Part shown: positions 9,739 through 17,307 of the stretch, in pieces
Layout: the number at the start of each line of letters is the position of its first letter
Numbering within the stretch: the first letter of the stretch is position 1
Source of the DNA: Candidatus Hermodarchaeota archaeon
Lineage (GTDB): Archaea > Asgardarchaeota > Heimdallarchaeia > Hodarchaeales > Hodarchaeaceae
Assembly (NCBI GenBank): GCA_048886185.1
Contig: JBHLKY010000003.1
Location: 88,495-120,494, forward strand
Reading direction: 5' to 3'
DNA length: 32,000 nucleotides
Translations under genes and position numbers: made by a program
Notes under the pieces: generated by a model
The model's database searches: none
Seen by the model: the letters and a program-made list of their open reading frames with translations, nothing else
Told to the model about the DNA's origin: nothing

Positions 9739-11907
9739 TTAAGGTGTAATTGCTCCTGGCGGAATAATATCCCAATTGATACGCCATATATATATCCAAT
9801 TATGTTCTGTTTTATACGCTAGTTCATAATAATTCGCATACTCAGCGTAATCATCAACGAAACCCTTTGTTGCAGGAGCATTATCTGTGATAGGAGCATA
9901 TTGCGTTATTCTACTAGAGTATGTCTCATCTGAGACCTCTGCTGTAAAGAGAGCCCAAAACACTGATTCATAGAATCGATTAACGTATCCCTGTATATAT
10001 TGGCCTCGGGAATCGTACTCAAGATAATCATCTTCGTCTATTTGGATTATATTACCATTAGCTTCCCCAATTCTGACAAACCATGGAACTTTACCAAGAT
10101 CAGAATCGAGTTGCCAATAACCATCGGACACTAATAGAACAATATAGGTTATATCATAGATATCCGCAATTTTAAGGGAGTCTTTTGGGTTGAGAACTAA
10201 CATACATCCAATATTACCAATTTTCGTCTTGTTAATTGTCGCATTGTCCACTAGAATAGTAGTATTAGAAATTCCACTAATCCAGTATCCATAGTCCCAC
10301 CAAGAAGCCACAACATCTGTTGGCCCAGCATTATAGTCTAACCAACTTATCGCTTCTTGCCAATCATATCCTAAAACAATTTGGGATTGATTTATTACTA
10401 CTGGAGTAGAGATTGAGGGAGCCTGTGTTGTCTTAATTGCTTGATCTATTGCTGTACCTATAAAGAAGAATATTATAATTCCAATAAATGCAAAAGCTAT
10501 TGCTGTCTGTTCATTAGATAATGGCTGTATAAAACGAGCTTTTCTTCGACTTAATGCGAATCGTTCTTGGAAGGCTAATACAAAAGGTAGAAGAGTTTGA
10601 TCAATCGCTTTTGCTGCAAGTAATGAAATAGCTGGAGCTAATATTAAAGCTAATCTTACCATGGAACCAGCGAAATATATTGCTGTCATGCCAAATAATA
10701 GTAGTAAAAGGTTCCTCTCAGTTGGTTTTTCATAAAGGTAGTAAAGGCTTAATGGTAAGAAAAAGATCAATAATCCTGTATTTCTAAAAAATGTTGCCCA
10801 TGTGACAATTTGATGTTCGCTAACTGACTTTAAAATTGGTGTTTGATCTCGATATATTGGTAGAAGTACAGTAACGAATTTTGAAGCTATATTGCTTAGA
10901 AATCCAGTAGAAAAGAGAACAACAATTCCCAAGACTGCAGCGACTCCAATAAAAGGAGCGATGGTTTTAAAACGTGCACGGAATCGTGTTGTGTCAGAAA
11001 AGGTATTAATATAACGATAAATTTCCATTATGGCTATTAAACCAAGAACACCTAAACCTGTTAAAGCATTTGAAGTTATGAGTGAATCTGGACCATTTCT
11101 CGGAATTAACATCATGATAAAGTATCCTATCAGGATTGATCCTCCATACGAAAGAAATAATCTATCTGAATGTTTCTTCATAACTAACAGAACTAATGCA
11201 TGAAGTGCTATTAAGTTGAAGACGTAAGTCGAAGCTCCCCATGAGCCAGATAGAATACCCAAGCATATTCCAGAAAGTATGGTCGAAGTAAGCGATCCTG
11301 TTCGTAAAGATCTTGCATAGAAATATAGCGCGAGGACAAGAAAAAGAATTCCTAGTGACTCGTGATCAAAAAATCCAACCACAGTTCTTTGAAGATGACC
11401 AGGGGAAATTACTAAGAAAAGGGCAGCCATTACTCCAATTTTCTTATTCCCTAGTTCTTTTCCCAAGAAGTATATTGCTACACATGTAAGCGCTCCCATA
11501 AGAGCTGGTTGATAATAGCAAATTATCCTTAGTGGGATATCTAAGCCTAAAAACATGGTTAATTGATGAATTAAGACTGCTGAGAGTGGGGTTCCAATAT
11601 ATTGATTTCGCCCCCAAAATCGGCCTTCAGGGTACCAAGTTTGTGTGTCGACCCAGCTAAAGAACTTGGCGAGACCATTTTCTTCAATGTATACTGCTGC
11701 ACGGTATTGGGAAAAAGGATCATTAGCTGTGAGGATAATTTCATATGAAGGTACATGAAGAGAGCCGAAGATTCTAACGAGGTAAGCTAAAATAAAAATT
11801 AATACAAGCGTAGTATAAAGTAAAACCATTTCTTTGTTAATTGATGTAGTAGCTGTATTATAGCGAGTTTTGAGGTCGTTTACAATTTTATCAATGAAAA
11901 CAGACAT
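9739..11907 (-). CDS. aglB: Oligosaccharyltransferase AglB / STT3
   Basis: Multiple TM segments, DP...YR, GFFDHE, SVSEHQ, WWDYG and DNAT motifs. Confidence 0.96.
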   Translation of the reverse strand: MSVFIDKIVNDLKTRYNTATTSINKEMVLLYTTLVLIFILAYLVRIFGSLHVPSYEIILTANDPFSQYRAAVYIEENGLAKFFSWVDTQTWYPEGRFWGRNQYIGTPLSAVLIHQLTMFLGLDIPLRIICYYQPALMGALTCVAIYFLGKELGNKKIGVMAALFLVISPGHLQRTVVGFFDHESLGILFLVLALYFYARSLRTGSLTSTILSGICLGILSGSWGASTYVFNLIALHALVLLVMKKHSDRLFLSYGGSILIGYFIMMLIPRNGPDSLITSNALTGLGVLGLIAIMEIYRYINTFSDTTRFRARFKTIAPFIGVAAVLGIVVLFSTGFLSNIASKFVTVLLPIYRDQTPILKSVSEHQIVTWATFFRNTGLLIFFLPLSLYYLYEKPTERNLLLLLFGMTAIYFAGSMVRLALILAPAISLLAAKAIDQTLLPFVLAFQERFALSRRKARFIQPLSNEQTAIAFAFIGIIIFFFIGTAIDQAIKTTQAPSISTPVVINQSQIVLGYDWQEAISWLDYNAGPTDVVASWWDYGYWISGISNTTILVDNATINKTKIGNIGCMLVLNPKDSLKIADIYDITYIVLLVSDGYWQLDSDLGKVPWFVRIGEANGNIIQIDEDDYLEYDSRGQYIQGYVNRFYESVFWALFTAEVSDETYSSRITQYAPITDNAPATKGFVDDYAEYANYYELAYKTEHNWIYIWRINWDIIPPGAITP

Positions 11908-12076: not shown

Positions 12077-12424
12077 ATGGTGTCAATTATGACAAAACAG
12101 CCCATGGATGTAGATTTAGAGCTATTTGAAATCGTGTTTCCAGGTAAACTCATTGGAAAAGCAGTTATTGATGCGAATGCCCGTATGATTGGGGTTATTC
12201 GTAATGTTCGAATTCGTATTCCTTCCCCAACTATTAGTTTGACCGTAAAAGGTCTTGATACTGAATTTACTGTAAAATCCGAGGATATTCAAGCAGTTGG
12301 TAATGTTGTACAACTGAATGTGACAATAAAACATTCTGAACCTATTGAGATTAATGAAATAATAAAATTGAGAACTGAGATTCAGGAGGAGTTGATTCAC
12401 TTTTTTTCTCTATTAAAGCAATAA
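12077..12424 (+). CDS. PRC-barrel domain protein
   Basis: KLIGKAVIDANARMIGVIRNV...EDIQAVGNVVQL follows the PRC-barrel pattern, with a C-terminal helical tail. Confidence 0.7.
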   Translation: MVSIMTKQPMDVDLELFEIVFPGKLIGKAVIDANARMIGVIRNVRIRIPSPTISLTVKGLDTEFTVKSEDIQAVGNVVQLNVTIKHSEPIEINEIIKLRTEIQEELIHFFSLLKQ

Positions 12425-12487: not shown

Positions 12488-13351
12488 ATGGTAGATATAA
12501 GCCGTTTGAAATCTTGGTCAAAACATTTAAGAGCTAGACGTGGAAATAAGATTTTTCTTCAAGCTGTAAAGATGTTTCATTATCATATAACTCCTTTCTC
12601 TGTACTATTACAGAGAATATGTGAAATTCTTGAGGAATTTGATGCTAAATTCACTTTTCCTCTTGTTGCATCAATAGCTCAATCTAATCCGACATTAGTT
12701 AAAAAGTTGAGATCTACTCCTCATGAAATTGCAATCCATGGCTATAAACACGTTCGATATCCATTCTTATCATTTAATCAACAATTATTTGAATTTAGAA
12801 AAGCTATTGAGATTTTTAGGGAGCTAAATATTCCTTTCGTAGGTTTTAGAGCCCCATATAACATCTATTCTGAGACTACTATTGAATTAATTGATAATTT
12901 TGGCTTTTTATGGGATGCAGGAATAGGATTTCGTCGTGATTATAGAGATGGTCATAAATTCTTTAAGGTTCCATTAAAAGATCGAAAAGTATCGTCTTAC
13001 ACCTGTATACCTCTATGTGAGTGGTCTGATGACCGTATGATTGATAATTATAAACTTTCATCAGAAAAAATGGCCAAAATATTAATCTATCATTTAGAGA
13101 AAGCTCGAAAGGTCAACGGGTTGATCATGTTTGATCTCCATCCAATAAGAATCGGGCAGAATCAATATATCAAGAGCTTAAAGCAGTTACTAATTCATGC
13201 AACGAAGATTGATGCGTGGGTTCCCACGGTGTCAGAGGCTGTGAATTATTGGTCAAAGCATCATCAATGGAAAGATTCTGCCCCCGTATGCTGTCTCCTT
13301 ACAGGAGATATTGATAACTTTACATTTTTTGATTATCTAAAAAGAATATGA
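12488..13351 (+). CDS. Polysaccharide deacetylase (CE4/NodB-like)
   Basis: KFTF, HEIAIHGYKH (metal His pair), GFRAPY and FDLHP motifs. A TGDID motif sits at the extreme C-terminus. Confidence 0.85.
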   Translation: MVDISRLKSWSKHLRARRGNKIFLQAVKMFHYHITPFSVLLQRICEILEEFDAKFTFPLVASIAQSNPTLVKKLRSTPHEIAIHGYKHVRYPFLSFNQQLFEFRKAIEIFRELNIPFVGFRAPYNIYSETTIELIDNFGFLWDAGIGFRRDYRDGHKFFKVPLKDRKVSSYTCIPLCEWSDDRMIDNYKLSSEKMAKILIYHLEKARKVNGLIMFDLHPIRIGQNQYIKSLKQLLIHATKIDAWVPTVSEAVNYWSKHHQWKDSAPVCCLLTGDIDNFTFFDYLKRI

Positions 13352-13361
13352 ACAGAAGGTT

Positions 13362-13862
13362 TTGGTTTTCTTGACTTATTGGTCTATAGGTATCGACATT
13401 GTAGAAATTCAACGTTTTAGGTCGTATCCATTACTAGATTACCCACGTTTTTATGAACGTGTTTTTGATGAATACGAATTTCAATATTGCACTCGTCATT
13501 CAGATCCCTATCCCCATTTTGCAGGAATTTTTGCAGGAAAAGAAGCGGTACTCAAAGCAATAAACAAACTTTTTCCCATCTCGCTTTCTGAAATTTCTAT
13601 TCATCATGATGAAACAGGAAGACCTGTTGTCTGGCTAGAAAAAAATGAAAACTCCCCAAAATCAAGAGAAAAATGGTTTATTAATAATCAGAATCTTGAA
13701 GTTCAAGTCACTATTACACACTCTAGTGACCTAGCGTTAGCATGGGCATTAATCTTTACAAATAATTCACGAAATGATCCATTTAGGATATTAGATAAGC
13801 TTAAAGCTGAATTGCAGCGAGAGATTGAGAATGAGTTCGTCGAGTATCGATGTACTACGTAA
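13362..13862 (+). CDS. acpS: Holo-[acyl-carrier-protein] synthase (4'-phosphopantetheinyl transferase)
   Basis: IGIDIVEI.RF, FAGIFAGKEAVLKA, GRP, and VTITHS..LA.A motifs. TTG start. Confidence 0.92.
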   Translation: MVFLTYWSIGIDIVEIQRFRSYPLLDYPRFYERVFDEYEFQYCTRHSDPYPHFAGIFAGKEAVLKAINKLFPISLSEISIHHDETGRPVVWLEKNENSPKSREKWFINNQNLEVQVTITHSSDLALAWALIFTNNSRNDPFRILDKLKAELQREIENEFVEYRCTT

Positions 13863-15687
13863 ACAGGATGAATTACTTGATTTAGTTAGGAAAAAGCCAA
13901 CTCACAGGAATTATTGGAACTCATACAAGAGGATCAGAAAATTAGATTTTTCTAATGTTGAGCTTTCCTCACAAGAACGTATTAACATAAGCTTGTTGAG
14001 TTCTTTCACAATAGATCCATTAGCAGTATATCTTGACATTGATTGTCGCTTATTAGGACTTTTTCCAGAGATTTATGTAGCACCCTTTAATAGATATCAT
14101 GAAGAGGTTCTCGATAAAGAAAGTGGCCTTTACAAATCAAAACCTGACTTAGTAATCTTTTTTATTAGAGTGGAGTCATTAATAGAAGATACATTCAGAG
14201 TAAAATATCCTCAAATGAAAACCAAACATATACAAACAGAAATTAATAGAATAATTCATGATATTAAACAACTATTAGCTCTGATAAATCAACAGAGTGA
14301 AGCAATAACTATTTTCAGTAATTTTGTTGTCCCCATGTTCTCTCCTTTTGGAATTTTAGATAATAAACAGCAAATTGGGTTTAAAGGCTTCTATAAATTA
14401 TTAAATCTAAGGCTTGAAGAGTCATTCCTGGATAATAATCAAAATTTCATCTTTAATCTAAATGAAGTTGCAAGTGGTTATGGAAAAGACAGATATATGA
14501 ATTATCAGATGAATTATCGGGGCTCAATATTTTTTAACGAACCATTCTTATCACGACTTTCTTACGAGTTAATGGGTTATGTCAAAGCACTCAAATCAAA
14601 AAATCGGAAATGTATTGTTCTAGATTTAGATAATACCCTTTGGGGTGGTATTATTGGAGAAGATGGACTAGAAGGCATTAAGCTTAACGTTAGCTATCCT
14701 GGTAACGAATTTGTCGACTTTCAGCGTTCTTTATTAAGCTTAAATAGCAAAGGTGTCATTTTAGCCATCAATAGCAAGAATAATCTTGATGATGCTCTAG
14801 AGGTTTTCCAGAAGCATCCTTACATGCAAATTAAGGAAAAAAACTTGGCAGCTTATCGTATTAACTGGAATGATAAAGTACAAAACCTTATTGAATTAGC
14901 TAAGGAGATAAATATAGGATTGGATAGCATAATATTTATTGATGATAATCCCGTTGAAAGGGCACGTGTACAGACTTCTCTTCCTGATGTACTCGTCTTG
15001 GATATGCCTTCTAGTCCTTTATTGTTTCGTAAAACTTTGGAAGAATTAAATGATTTTAATACCCTATCGCTTACAATAGAAGACCTCCATCGGAGTGAAA
15101 TGTATTATGCTAGACGCAAAAGACAGGATCTCGAACAGCATGTTCAATCCATGGAGGAATTTATAGAATCATTAGACATTGTTGCAATAATTAAACTAAC
15201 AGATAATTTTGTACTCCCACGTGTTACGAGTCTTCTGAACAGAACAAATCAATTTAATTTAACCACTAAGCGTTATACGGAATCTGAAGTTCAATATCTG
15301 CATTCTAATCCAGAGAAATATCTTATCTATACCGTACAAGTCCAGGATAAATTTGGTGATGAGGGAATTGTAGGTGTTGCTATAGTTGAAAAAGACTCAG
15401 TTGATAAATGGATTGTCGATAGTTTCCTTCTGAGTTGTAGGGTAATTGGTAGAAAAATCGAAACAGTTTTTCTCACAAAATTAATTAATGATGCTAAAAG
15501 TCAAAATGTAAAGGTACTTGAAGCAACATACATCCCGACTAAGAAAAATACATTAGTAAGTGACTTTTACTCCAAACATAGTTTTCAGTTGGTAAAAGAA
15601 TACCCTAATGGAGAGACACAGTGGGTACTCTCTTTAAGTGATTTTAATTTAGATTATCCTGAATATATTCGCGTTGTGGAAGAATGA
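13831..15687 (+). CDS. FkbH-like HAD-IIIC protein (glyceryl-ACP-forming enzyme family)
   Basis: N-terminal extension, HAD motif VLDLDNTLWGGIIGEDG (14623), SKNN, RINW.DK, FIDDNPVER, R...L..RTNQFNLTT, DKFGD.G, and SCRV (Cys 15436). It overlaps the acpS end. ATG 13831 is preferred to TTG 13825. Confidence 0.93.
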   Translation: MSSSSIDVLRKQDELLDLVRKKPTHRNYWNSYKRIRKLDFSNVELSSQERINISLLSSFTIDPLAVYLDIDCRLLGLFPEIYVAPFNRYHEEVLDKESGLYKSKPDLVIFFIRVESLIEDTFRVKYPQMKTKHIQTEINRIIHDIKQLLALINQQSEAITIFSNFVVPMFSPFGILDNKQQIGFKGFYKLLNLRLEESFLDNNQNFIFNLNEVASGYGKDRYMNYQMNYRGSIFFNEPFLSRLSYELMGYVKALKSKNRKCIVLDLDNTLWGGIIGEDGLEGIKLNVSYPGNEFVDFQRSLLSLNSKGVILAINSKNNLDDALEVFQKHPYMQIKEKNLAAYRINWNDKVQNLIELAKEINIGLDSIIFIDDNPVERARVQTSLPDVLVLDMPSSPLLFRKTLEELNDFNTLSLTIEDLHRSEMYYARRKRQDLEQHVQSMEEFIESLDIVAIIKLTDNFVLPRVTSLLNRTNQFNLTTKRYTESEVQYLHSNPEKYLIYTVQVQDKFGDEGIVGVAIVEKDSVDKWIVDSFLLSCRVIGRKIETVFLTKLINDAKSQNVKVLEATYIPTKKNTLVSDFYSKHSFQLVKEYPNGETQWVLSLSDFNLDYPEYIRVVEE

Positions 15688-15932
15688 TGGTTAATACACA
15701 GGCAATATTCGAAGATATTGTTTCTAAAATACTTTTATTGGAAAAAAATCAATTAAATGACGATATCTCAAGAGATGACCTTGAAGAATGGGATTCTATG
15801 ACTCATCTAGCGTTAATTTCAGAGTTAGAGCAAGCTTTTGACATAATTCTTTCTGATGATGAAGTTACCGAAATCAAGACTATTGGTGATGTTAAAAGAA
15901 CCTTAATCAAGCACAAAATTAAAATTCTGTAA
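15684..15932 (+). CDS. Acyl carrier protein
   Basis: 82-aa acidic protein with WDSM attachment motif (Ser38, 15795-15797) and ELEQAFDI. ATGA overlap with the FkbH stop. Confidence 0.9.
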   Translation: MMVNTQAIFEDIVSKILLLEKNQLNDDISRDDLEEWDSMTHLALISELEQAFDIILSDDEVTEIKTIGDVKRTLIKHKIKIL

Positions 15933-15999
15933 TTTTTTTCTTCGAAAGAAATTCATTAAGTGGAATCTTATGTAAGTAGACCACAAGAAGATATAATTT

Positions 16000-16407
16000 C
16001 TATAATTCTAGAAATTCTAGAAGATAATGGGTCGGTGTCCAAACAAAAGCTATTCGGCGGCCATTAAAAAGCGCTGAAGGTGTTGGACGGAGTGCAATTA
16101 CAGCATGGTTTTCCCGTGCTTTCTTAAGTGCTTCTTCTAGGCCTGGTACCTCTATACAATAGTGGTACAAGTGATTATTTTGCTTTAATATTTGATCAAT
16201 AGTGGATGGTGATTCAGTTGGTTCTACTAATTCAAGTAAGCAGTTTTCAGACGATTGACCGTTGATAGCTAGAAGAACTACCTTTACTTTCAATCTTTTG
16301 TCATCAATAACATTACTTACTTGCTTCATACCTAATGCTTGAATATGAAATCCTAAGCTTTCTTCAATTGAGTTAACAGCAACACCGACATGGTGAATTT
16401 TGGTCAT
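16000..16407 (-). CDS. VOC-fold protein, methylmalonyl-CoA epimerase-like
   Basis: IHHVGVAV, LLELVEP, LYHYCIEV and LLEFLE supply the H/E/H/E metal-ligand pattern of VOC enzymes. Confidence 0.8.
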   Translation of the reverse strand: MTKIHHVGVAVNSIEESLGFHIQALGMKQVSNVIDDKRLKVKVVLLAINGQSSENCLLELVEPTESPSTIDQILKQNNHLYHYCIEVPGLEEALKKARENHAVIALRPTPSALFNGRRIAFVWTPTHYLLEFLEL

Positions 16408-16415
16408 AAGTTATT

Positions 16416-16883
16416 TCATCCTTTTGATGACACTTCATTTGGTTTTGGTAATTTTGAAACCACTCGAGCTGGATTACCTGCAGCGATATTAAAATCTGGA
16501 ATATTTCGATTGACAACAGCGCCAGCAGCTATGATTGAGCCTTCTCCAATTGTCACTCCTGGGAGAATAATAGCCCCAGACCCAATCCATGCTCCTCGTT
16601 TGATAAGTACCGCCTGTGATGGTTGTTTAAAGATCTTTGTTTGGTGGTGATATGGACTTCCACCTGAATGAGCTAGAATTGAAACAAGAGGGCCAATACT
16701 GACATCATCTTCTAGTGTAATTAAATGTGGGTATTCTCCGTCAAAAAAGACTAAATTTCCTATATATACTCGTTTTCCAATCTTCACACCGCATTTACGC
16801 CATATACTTGCCCTAAATTGGTATATAGGTGCAATCCAAGCAAGAATGCGAAGAAGTCTTCCTATAACTCGACCCAATGACAA
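16416..16883 (-). CDS. Left-handed beta-helix (hexapeptide repeat) acyltransferase
   Basis: GVKIGKRVYIG, ITLEDDVSIGP..SILAH, VLIKRGAWIGSGAIILPGVTIGEGSIIAAGAVV and AAGNPARV. Confidence 0.9.
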   Translation of the reverse strand: MSLGRVIGRLLRILAWIAPIYQFRASIWRKCGVKIGKRVYIGNLVFFDGEYPHLITLEDDVSIGPLVSILAHSGGSPYHHQTKIFKQPSQAVLIKRGAWIGSGAIILPGVTIGEGSIIAAGAVVNRNIPDFNIAAGNPARVVSKLPKPNEVSSKG

Positions 16884-16935: not shown

Positions 16936-17307
16936 TTACTGAATAGAAGTAATTTTAATTATCACATCTAATAACAGATCTATTATTTGAAGAGTTTTTC
17001 TTATTTCTTCAACTTCATCACATTCAGCAAGTTTTTGTGCTAGAAAGTTTAATTTCCCAGTTAAAATGTCTTGAACCATATCACGGGTTTCTAAAAATGA
17101 GTGAGCATATTCGACTCTCTTAGCTTCATCATCCGAACTCACAAATACAGCTTTTCTTCCACATTTTGGACAAAAAGTGTTTTTATTCTTTCTAAACAAT
17201 GGAACCTTGCAATCAGGACAGGAATCAGCTAACATTGTTGCTCCTGAAAGCAATAGATCACTCATACTCTTAATATCAGAAGAAGAATTTTTTTTCTCTC
17301 TTGACAT
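16936..17307 (-). CDS. Sjogren syndrome/scleroderma autoantigen 1 (UPF0148) family Zn-ribbon protein
   Basis: MSDLLLSGATMLADSCPDCKVPLF......FCPKC. Confidence 0.85.
   Translation of the reverse strand: MSREKKNSSSDIKSMSDLLLSGATMLADSCPDCKVPLFRKNKNTFCPKCGRKAVFVSSDDEAKRVEYAHSFLETRDMVQDILTGKLNFLAQKLAECDEVEEIRKTLQIIDLLLDVIIKITSIQ

Follow-up and report, generated by a model that had tools for sequence, protein, structure and literature searches.

A 32,000 nt stretch of the genome of a Candidatus Hermodarchaeota archaeon (assembly GCA_048886185.1, contig JBHLKY010000003.1, positions 88,495 to 120,494 of the forward strand), which we call the window, contains a discrete block of six genes. They code for a CE4 deacetylase, an AcpS-type 4'-phosphopantetheinyl transferase (PPTase), an FkbH-like loader, an acyl carrier protein (ACP), a VOC-fold protein, and a left-handed beta-helix (LbH) acyltransferase. 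On balance, we lean towards the view that these genes form a portable cassette with a private carrier-protein system, which would tailor a sugar of the N-glycan precursor used by the oligosaccharyltransferase AglB. The relevant features are listed below in window positions, those of the cassette first and its neighbors after them (E is the E-value of the profile match).

12488–13351, plus strand: CE4 deacetylase (Polysacc_deac_1), first gene of the cassette; PF01522, E 2.2e-14; DUF2334
13362–13862, plus strand: AcpS-type PPTase; PF01648, E 1.7e-16; TIGR00556
13831–15687, plus strand: FkbH-like loader, ATG at 13831 (open frame from TTG 13825); TIGR01686; FkbH_N (PF21211)
15684–15932, plus strand: dedicated ACP; PF00550, 26.1 bits (cut-off 20.8)
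15933–15939, plus strand: run of seven T directly 3' of the ACP stop, putative archaeal terminator of the CE4-AcpS-FkbH-ACP transcript
16000–16407, minus strand: VOC-fold protein; PF13669, E 1.6e-12
16416–16883, minus strand: LbH (hexapeptide) acyltransferase; PF00132, E 7e-15
9739–11907, minus strand: AglB/STT3 oligosaccharyltransferase, divergent neighbor; PF02516, E 4e-49
12077–12424, plus strand: open reading frame (ORF) of 115 amino acids (aa), left boundary, outside the cassette; no family match
16936–17307, minus strand: zinc-ribbon protein (p27-like), right boundary, outside the cassette; PF06677, E 5e-17

The AcpS and FkbH genes overlap by 32 nt counted from the ATG (38 nt if TTG 13825 is the start), and the FkbH stop and the ACP start have ATGA in common, a 4 nt overlap. 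These measurements agree with an earlier note on this DNA, made from the sequence alone, which had described an overlapping run of these three genes. It had also placed CE4, VOC and LbH genes at the sides of the run, and all three are found there by profile match. The gap between CE4 and AcpS is 10 nt, that between LbH and VOC is 8 nt, and the VOC and LbH pair on the minus strand is convergent to the four genes on the plus strand. The divergent aglB gene, which the note had put about 0.6 kb away, is 580 nt from the start of the CE4 gene. The 115 aa ORF lies in this interval and separates aglB from the cassette, a detail missing from the note. The rest of the window is archaeal, with genes for Orc1/Cdc6, the PolD small subunit, a class I aminoacyl-tRNA synthetase, an unsplit RpoB, Spt5, and L10. 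The names that databases give to near-identical proteins point to Hodarchaeales/Heimdallarchaeia.

The boundaries of the cassette are sharp. The whole neighborhood (Orc1, PolD small subunit, AglB, 115 aa ORF, cassette, p27, aminoacyl-tRNA synthetase, 361 aa ORF, and RpoB) is found by tblastn in six other genomes of the genus. Four genomes without FkbH (G001, G002, G004, and G011; G numbers denote genomes and L numbers loci in our comparison) have the order Orc1, PolD, AglB, 115 aa ORF, p27, aminoacyl-tRNA synthetase. Since these cassette-less congeners keep the same two flanks only 28–69 nt apart, the 4.4 kb at positions 12488–16883 are a clean presence/absence polymorphism, with exactly the limits that the earlier note had drawn. 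The 115 aa ORF is found beside aglB, with 70–93% identity, in congeners with and without the cassette, and is therefore not part of it. It may be an aglB-associated protein; no similarity was found between it and the ORF that lies beside the cassette of locus L124. A search of the insertion site for flanking repeats gave only 7 nt chance matches, and no integrase or transposase is next to the cassette in the window. The cassette has a GC content of 0.341, compared to 0.347 for the window, and its GC content at third codon positions (GC3) is 0.22–0.27, as in the host genes. We have rejected a recent transfer, because composition and GC3 equal those of the host. One locus of the comparison, L021 (G007:C1, a single contig of 1.4 Mb, 71% complete), contains the cassette and the 115 aa ORF. 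The 7 kb on the far side of this ORF contain neither aglB nor the PolD small subunit nor Orc1, and no STT3 was found in the whole assembly; this corresponds either to a rearrangement or to an assembly gap.

The carrier system is private to the cassette. A profile search of the genome (4.84 Mb, 96% complete) finds PP-binding, ACPS and FkbH just once each, in every case inside the cassette. Of the 22 genomes compared in the genus, the 11 with the cassette all have a stand-alone AcpS, which is always the neighbor of FkbH; the 11 without the cassette have none.

At least 16 archaeal contexts share this gene set, and the counts given below refer to 16 that can be told apart. Such a recurring arrangement is far more than chance would give. 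AcpS, FkbH, ACP, LbH and CE4, with or without VOC, are found together in every archaeal cassette locus that we have examined, while the gene order varies: VOC-LbH may be divergent from CE4-AcpS-FkbH-ACP, or AcpS-FkbH-ACP may be convergent with LbH-CE4-VOC. FkbH orthologues with at least 50% identity come from genomes labelled as Hodarchaeales, Kariarchaeaceae, Njordarchaeota, "Asgard group", and Bathyarchaeota. We have compared them with a sample of FkbH homologues from at least 80 loci, obtained by an alignment-based scan; it is a sample and not a census. The sampled bacterial homologues are 32–41% identical. In trees which are unrooted, and whose bacterial rows are this sample, the archaeal cassette FkbH sequences form one clade (SH-aLRT 98 in a tree of 98 rows; bootstrap 99 and SH-aLRT 98 in a tree of 35 rows). 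The clade contains Thor-, Bathyarchaeia- and Heimdall-type subclades, and its weakly supported sister is a Nitrospinota sequence. As judged from these trees, the cassette is old in archaea, and a bacterial origin is plausible. The earlier note had called the system bacterial-type. This holds in so far as the families are mostly bacterial, but the archaeal cassettes have an old and well supported clade of their own. Of the phylogenies (FkbH, ACP, and AcpS) that the note had suggested as a way to find the donor, that of FkbH has been made, and no donor can be named from it.

Several other features of these loci should be mentioned. A second type of FkbH-like protein, with a long branch, about 30% identity and 610–640 aa, is found in L022, L023, L025, L029, L033, L034 and L035, for example in G008:C52, a genome of the same genus. 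No ACP, AcpS, LbH, CE4 or VOC is found near these genes, whose neighbors are unannotated ORFs, a THUMP protein and an alpha/beta hydrolase. It appears to be a different system, with a carrier-less FkbH-like enzyme, and does not enter into our argument. In two Bathyarchaeia-type loci, a class I S-adenosylmethionine (SAM) methyltransferase is found just upstream of AcpS-FkbH-ACP (L124:8025–8603 and L132:6998–7654). The gene brings to mind the glyceroyl group of Campylobacter pseudaminic acid, which is O-methylated; the Hodarchaeales cassette has no such gene. The presumed substrate of FkbH, 1,3-bisphosphoglycerate, is made by phosphoglycerate kinase, and a gene for this enzyme is found some 2 kb downstream of the cassette in L125 (14020–15210) and L129 (14019–15206). 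The L125 cassette is split by an FtsX/ABC transporter. Both the proximity of the kinase and the split could be coincidence.

The link with N-glycosylation comes from gene context. The aglB gene is found within 5 kb of the cassette in five of the 16 archaeal contexts, which belong to two phyla. The distance is 0.6 kb in the genus of the window. In Heimdall-type L130 (Orc1, a 493 aa ORF, STT3, TruA, and then the cassette) it is 1.5 kb, and in L129, of the same type (PolD, STT3, two ORFs, and then the cassette), it is 4.9 kb. In L124 (Bathyarchaeota BA2), STT3 is divergent from the methyltransferase, followed by an ORF and AcpS-FkbH-ACP, with aglB at 1.3 kb. In L132, of Bathyarchaeia type, STT3 is 0.5 kb past the CE4 end, so that aglB is at opposite ends of the cassette in L124 and L132. 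The L132 cassette is also set among genes for a GT1 glycosyltransferase, an epimerase/dehydratase, DegT, a GFO/IDH/MocA oxidoreductase, a UDP-sugar dehydrogenase, and DUF354. Beyond the five contexts with aglB, sugar genes are near the cassette in two more: L038 (Glycos_transf_4, a UDP-sugar dehydrogenase, a nucleotidyltransferase, and glycosyltransferases, which are of the GT1 and GT2 families in L132 and L038) and L126 (GT1 and a second LbH).

The aglB gene is single-copy in the genome of the window and in the aglB-adjacent genomes that we have compared. For a single-copy gene in a genome of 2–5 Mb, chance adjacency is about 0.5% per independent context. Three Heimdall-type contexts, with PolD or Orc1 by aglB, may have a common ancestry, so the five contexts should conservatively be counted as two or three independent cases. 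On the FkbH tree, aglB adjacency is scattered and includes early branches of the Bathyarchaeia and Heimdall subclades, with at least five changes, a lower bound because L021 had been scored as aglB-adjacent in this count. Whether retained or regained, such an adjacency argues for a functional tie. Bacterial homologues point in the same direction: the two whose loci have been annotated are both found in glycan loci. The FkbH-ACP homologue of L050, from the cultured Clostridium moutaii, is part of a flagellin nonulosonic-acid locus with Maf, NeuB and a CMP-transferase (CMP-sugar synthetase), and that of L081 is part of a polysaccharide locus. Homologous modules do co-occur with glycosylation genes, a check that the earlier note had proposed. 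We consider it probable that the target is a glycan; that it is specifically the AglB N-glycan is a somewhat less than even proposition.

The proteins of the carrier system are well defined. AcpS scores 60.6 bits with PF01648 (cut-off 25) and 61.9 bits with TIGR00556 (cut-off 45.35), while its 53 bits with the equivalog model TIGR00516 are under the cut-off of 59.8. Its G-I-D and K-E-A motifs are conserved, which makes it a member of the AcpS-type PPTases. The FkbH protein, whose database copies begin at ATG 13831, has 618 aa and three domains: FkbH_N, a HAD-IIIC phosphatase, and a C-terminal Cys domain. It scores 305 bits with TIGR01686 (cut-off 146.65), in a match that reaches residue 589, and 69.6 bits with TIGR01681. 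Residues 49–417, the N-terminal and HAD domains, align to PDB 3SLR (BF1531 of Bacteroides fragilis) with E 2.9e-46. BF1531 is the only solved relative, an uncharacterised protein whose 387 aa chain does not cover the C-terminal Cys domain.

The DLDNT, SCR and DS motifs that the earlier note had read as intact are invariant in 14–15 orthologues. In FkbH, D267/D269 (DLDNT), S317, K351, D373/D374 and C538 (SCRVIG) are invariant in 14 orthologues, and we take C538 to be the catalytic, acyl-accepting Cys, in line with work on OzmB and FkbH. The substrate of FkbH and OzmB is 1,3-bisphosphoglycerate, which gives a glyceryl unit on the ACP. A protein which keeps both the phosphatase motifs and the Cys fits a phosphorylated acyl-phosphate substrate, namely 1,3-bisphosphoglycerate, and we are fairly confident that the ACP would receive a glyceryl-type load. 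In the ACP, the attachment site W36-D37-S38 of the PP-binding domain is invariant in 15 orthologues. The protein is under the cut-offs of the equivalog models for fatty-acid ACPs, and is therefore not an AcpP of fatty-acid synthesis. An ACP is present in all but eight of 80 sampled FkbH-homologue loci, directly adjoining in most.

The VOC protein can only be called a member of the VOC superfamily (PF13669), since its 54.5 bits do not reach the cut-off of 114.95 of the methylmalonyl-CoA epimerase model TIGR03081. Its PDB matches are 3HDP/2QH0 and methylmalonyl-CoA epimerases, and it resembles glyoxalase I too. It is facultative, being absent from four congeneric cassettes. A VOC gene is directly beside FkbH (less than 100 nt) in 14 of 76 sampled non-cassette loci, nearly all of them bacterial. 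The protein probably acts on the ACP-bound acyl group and is thus a candidate editor; our best guess for its reaction, by analogy alone, is an epimerisation at C2.

According to the literature, nearly all archaea lack ACP and its synthase (PMC3533463; bioRxiv 10.1101/2024.07.05.601840). The statement of the earlier note that they are outside the standard archaeal toolkit agrees with this literature, but has to be qualified, since other families of the same archaeal class have them in a megasynthase. This protein of about 3500 aa is found in L128:1390–11934, plus strand (G038:C1), and in about 30 other genomes of the class (families f3, f4, f5, and f7). Its Pfam content is an NMO-like enoyl reductase, a ketosynthase, an acyltransferase, a stretch similar to ketosynthase III, three ACP domains, a ketoreductase, a dehydratase, and a C-terminal Sfp-type PPTase, and a carboxyltransferase gene is upstream of it in L128. 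It was not found in any of the 22 genomes of the genus of the window, and the literature searched holds no account of such a megasynthase in Asgard archaea.

The genes suggest the following mechanism. AcpS would turn apo-ACP into holo-ACP. Cys538 of FkbH would capture 1,3-bisphosphoglycerate, its HAD domain would remove the 3-phosphate, and the glyceryl group would be passed to holo-ACP. Where present, VOC would edit the thioester at C2, epimerisation being the likeliest reaction. A cytoplasmic CE4 would remove the acetyl group from an N-acetyl sugar, probably a dolichol- or nucleotide-linked sugar of the GlcNAc type. LbH would move the ACP-borne acyl group to the deacetylated sugar, and AglB would later hand the finished glycan to protein. 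All this chemistry would be cytoplasmic, because it depends on ACP. We infer the C3 substrate, the acceptor, the order of the steps and the kind of linkage (N or O) from family membership and gene context. The proposal in its full form is that, at the cytoplasmic face and ahead of the transfer by AglB, an amino sugar of the dolichol-linked N-glycan precursor receives a glycerate-derived acyl group, and that ACP and AcpS serve solely for that purpose; it is a tentative one that we consider rather doubtful as a whole. A strict swap of N-acetyl for N-glyceroyl, taken by itself, is possible but less likely than not.

The pairing of a deacetylase with LbH fits the logic of LpxC and LpxD in lipid A synthesis, where a GlcNAc derivative is de-N-acetylated and then N-acylated from acyl-ACP by an LbH enzyme. 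The two steps proposed for the cassette are similar. On the other hand, LpxC is not a CE4 enzyme, the LbH of the cassette is not LpxD-like, and its donor would be a private ACP with a C3 hydroxy acid, not the ACP of fatty-acid synthesis with a fatty acyl group. For a CE4 enzyme acting on a lipid-linked sugar, the precedent is ArnD, a deformylase which acts at the cytoplasmic face on a polyprenyl-phosphate amino sugar (undecaprenyl-phosphate-Ara4FN). The amphipathic N-termini of the cassette CE4 and LbH would suit a lipid-linked substrate.

The CE4 protein has the barrel fold of its family. Its AlphaFold model (pLDDT 89) gives a Foldseek TM score of 0.68 to 3RXZ, PuuE and 1Z7A, and the scores to 3RXZ, 3CL6, 1Z7A, 3S6O and 3QBU are 0.63–0.69. 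ArnD is a structural match too, at rank 12 of the Foldseek list (E 1e-5, 10% identity), while CE4 is closer to the subgroup of the cytoplasmic proteins 3RXZ, PuuE and HP0310. Candidates for the five catalytic motifs are all invariant in 15 orthologues: H84/H88, R121-P123-Y124, W179-S-D-D182, D216-L-H218-P, and T272-G-D-I-D276. The last one, the Asp motif, is usually the first; here it has been moved from the N-terminus to the C-terminus, an arrangement consistent with a circular permutation of the CE4 barrel.

LbH, with 155 aa, is the only transferase candidate in the cassette and its most conserved member (orthologues are 59–85% identical). Its best NCBIfam match is the WcaF family (2.8e-18), followed by heptaprenylglyceryl-phosphate O-acetyltransferase (3.4e-17), and its sequence matches include SACOL2570 (1e-20) and LacA (1.8e-16). 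The structures nearest to its model (pLDDT 88) are maltose and galactoside O-acetyltransferases, with maltose transacetylase as the first Foldseek match. LbH also has the two N-terminal helices that are characteristic of the LacA, maltose transacetylase and WcaF class, to which it belongs by sequence and by predicted fold. The N-acyltransferases of the FdtD/WxcM-like, WlbB, QdtC and AntD types rank slightly below the O-acetyltransferases among its matches, while no LpxA or LpxD is found among the best 60 of 87 sequence matches or the top 50 structure matches. When the LbH trimer was co-folded with the ACP, the score was 0.56, compared to 0.18 for the best control, which lends weak support to an interaction. 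The runs agree in at least 95% of the contacts, with a partner pLDDT of at least 84. The mark we have used is passed by 58 of 80 solved complexes and by two of 110 mismatched pairs, and passes with a score of 0.60 or lower comprise just seven of the 80 solved complexes and both of the mismatches. The pass may also stem from the memory of the model, as LbH-ACP complexes have already been solved.

Several of our observations weigh against the proposed mechanism. By both sequence and fold, LbH is nearest to acetyl-CoA-dependent O-acetyltransferases and not to LpxA/LpxD or to sugar N-acyltransferases, a kinship which is the main evidence against a strict N-acyl swap. At the position of the catalytic His of LacA, which we take to be His115, LbH aligns with Ser76 (Gly74 in the alignment to SACOL2570); H72 and H79, in the same loop as Ser76, are invariant. 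The subgroup nearest to CE4 includes enzymes which do not act on sugars, for example the allantoinase PuuE. In nine of the 16 contexts, no gene for glycosylation is found up to 10 kb from the cassette. Half of the genus (11 of 22 genomes) lacks the cassette, which is thus dispensable. Finally, no glyceroylated archaeal glycan is reported in the literature searched. The earlier note had proposed that glyceryl-ACP acylates a sugar of a glycan: gene context supports the glycan, while the N-glyceroyl part is called into question by the nearness of LbH to the O-acetyltransferases.

This nearness leads to the first alternative, in which the target is also a glycan: LbH would O-acylate a sugar hydroxyl, with an ACP-borne acyl group or with acetyl-CoA, and CE4 would be independent, making free GlcN or removing an O-acetyl group. 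All the best matches of LbH in sequence and structure are O-acetyltransferases, and the N-terminal helices are common to them and to LbH. WcaF, LacA and maltose transacetylase use acetyl-CoA and acylate hydroxyls. In contrast, the cassette LbH is shorter, has a Ser at the position aligned to the catalytic His of LacA, and is always found with an ACP system; if it used acetyl-CoA, no enzyme of the cassette would unload the ACP. The deacetylase is kept with the transferase in every archaeal cassette, which is best explained by a swap, and the N-acyltransferases are just slightly more distant from LbH. We know of no O-glyceroyl sugar as a precedent. For N-glyceroyl sugars, bacterial precedent exists (PMC5378307, PMC3068675). 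We consider O-acylation without a swap to be unlikely.

A second alternative gives the cassette a target other than a glycan, such as a membrane lipid head group or a small metabolite, and takes the aglB linkage as the result of chance or of a common membrane-proximal location. It could account for the contexts without sugar genes, for the second NCBIfam match of LbH (the heptaprenylglyceryl-phosphate enzyme), and for the non-polysaccharide enzymes among the nearest structures of CE4. In L127 and L125, a transporter (EamA or ABC/FtsX) lies next to the cassette or interrupts it. Nevertheless, LbH is far under the cut-off of the lipid enzyme model (62.5 bits compared to 300), aglB is close to the cassette in two phyla, sometimes at one end of it and sometimes at the other, the L132 cassette is inside a full sugar-nucleotide and glycosyltransferase locus, and both annotated bacterial homologues are in glycan loci. 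A target of this kind is quite improbable.

In a third alternative the acceptor is a nonulosonic acid of the pseudaminic or legionaminic type, instead of a core sugar of the GlcNAc type; the model would be the flagellin and O-glycan systems of bacteria. N-glyceroyl and 2,3-di-O-methylglyceroyl pseudaminic acids are known from Tannerella forsythia and Campylobacter jejuni 11168 (PMC5378307, PMC3068675). Deacylation followed by re-acylation has been proposed for Cj1295 (PMC3068675), and the genes for the acyl transfer to N-glyceroyl sugars are still unassigned in bacteria (PMC5378307). The product class would be the one that we predict, a glycerate-derived acyl group in place of N-acetyl on a sugar of a protein-linked glycan, and the Clostridium moutaii homologue is found between Maf, NeuB and CMP-sugar synthetase genes. 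The genome of the window also has two NeuB-family genes within 11 kb on contig C6 (G000:C6:13050–24251), with an LbH gene just downstream, probably a locus for nonulosonic-acid biosynthesis. However, the Tannerella and Campylobacter glycans are O-linked, while the recurring partner of the cassette is AglB, and no NeuB or CMP-transferase gene adjoins the cassette in the 16 archaeal contexts. NeuB is found in seven of the 11 genomes of the genus which contain the cassette and in six of the 11 which do not. As NeuB does not co-vary with the cassette, an obligatory nonulosonic-acid acceptor is unlikely, and we give this alternative as a whole very little weight.

To our knowledge, the only experimentally established role of FkbH-ACP pairs is the supply of polyketide synthesis (FK520, oxazolomycin, and tetronates), so a fourth alternative is that the module supplies a glycerate-derived starter or extender (methoxymalonyl, hydroxymalonyl or tetronate type) to a polyketide or nonribosomal peptide pathway elsewhere in the genome. 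The cassette FkbH belongs to the same TIGR01686 family as the FkbH/OzmB glyceryl-ACP loaders, with the same FkbH_N/HAD-IIIC/Cys architecture and the same DxDxT and Cys motifs, and its dedicated ACP is immediately downstream as well. The partners are different: CE4, LbH, VOC and its own AcpS, in an archaeon and beside aglB. In contrast to the methoxymalonyl-ACP and tetronate pathways, the cassette has no dehydrogenases, no O-methyltransferase and no FkbI/K/G-type partner, and the genome has no ketosynthase or polyketide synthase as a consumer. A genome search with PF00109 found no true ketosynthase but only three weak thiolase-like ORFs, of the same kind as those found in control archaea. One stand-alone condensation-like ORF is found on contig C2. 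It is present in seven cassette-less congeners and was not found in six of the 11 genomes of the genus with the cassette; since its distribution does not track the cassette, it is not a cassette partner. The earlier note had found no ketosynthase or nonribosomal peptide synthetase in the window, and this can be extended to the whole genome, except for that unlinked ORF. A polyketide or lipid pathway elsewhere would have spoken against the glycan proposal of the note, and no true ketosynthase, second carrier domain or second PPTase was found. We have therefore rejected this link, which is hardly credible.

Finally, bacterial contamination or a chimeric join in the metagenome-assembled contig, which the note had also named as a risk and which might be suspected in a bin of 75 contigs with 4.96% estimated contamination and with FkbH, ACP and AcpS from mostly bacterial families, has been tested and is practically excluded by the archaeal core genes on both flanks in a contig of more than 120 kb, by the identical arrangement in at least seven other genomes (single-contig assemblies among them), by the host-like GC and GC3, and by the presence of the stretch in four sequencing runs which are possibly its source and in at least one run of another study (half of the sampled words). 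No RNA run is listed among those that contain the stretch.

In the literature searched there is no account in substance of FkbH in archaea, nor of FkbH in a glycan pathway, and no paper was found that describes the cassette. The earlier note had not known an ACP-dependent glycan modification to be described for archaea. The enzyme families and the logic of deacetylation followed by acylation are already known. What is new is their combination, their presence in archaea, and the link with AglB.

In summary, ACP and AcpS are conserved in the Asgard and Bathyarchaeia lineages, with a vertical structure and no relation to fatty-acid synthesis. Genomic surveys that take ACP or AcpS in Asgard archaea as evidence of bacterial-type lipid synthesis would misinterpret the cassette. 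If our proposal is true, the lineage closest to eukaryotes would have a new chemistry for archaeal N-glycans, with a carrier protein that delivers a hydroxyacyl group derived from glycolysis. It would also be a first for N-glycosylation, no pathway of which is known to have a carrier-protein-dependent step, and it would be found in Hodarchaeales-type Asgard archaea, Thorarchaeia, and Bathyarchaeia. The proposal offers a testable genetic basis for N-glyceroyl sugars, and the presence/absence polymorphism within a single genus provides natural, isogenic-like pairs for glycoproteomics.

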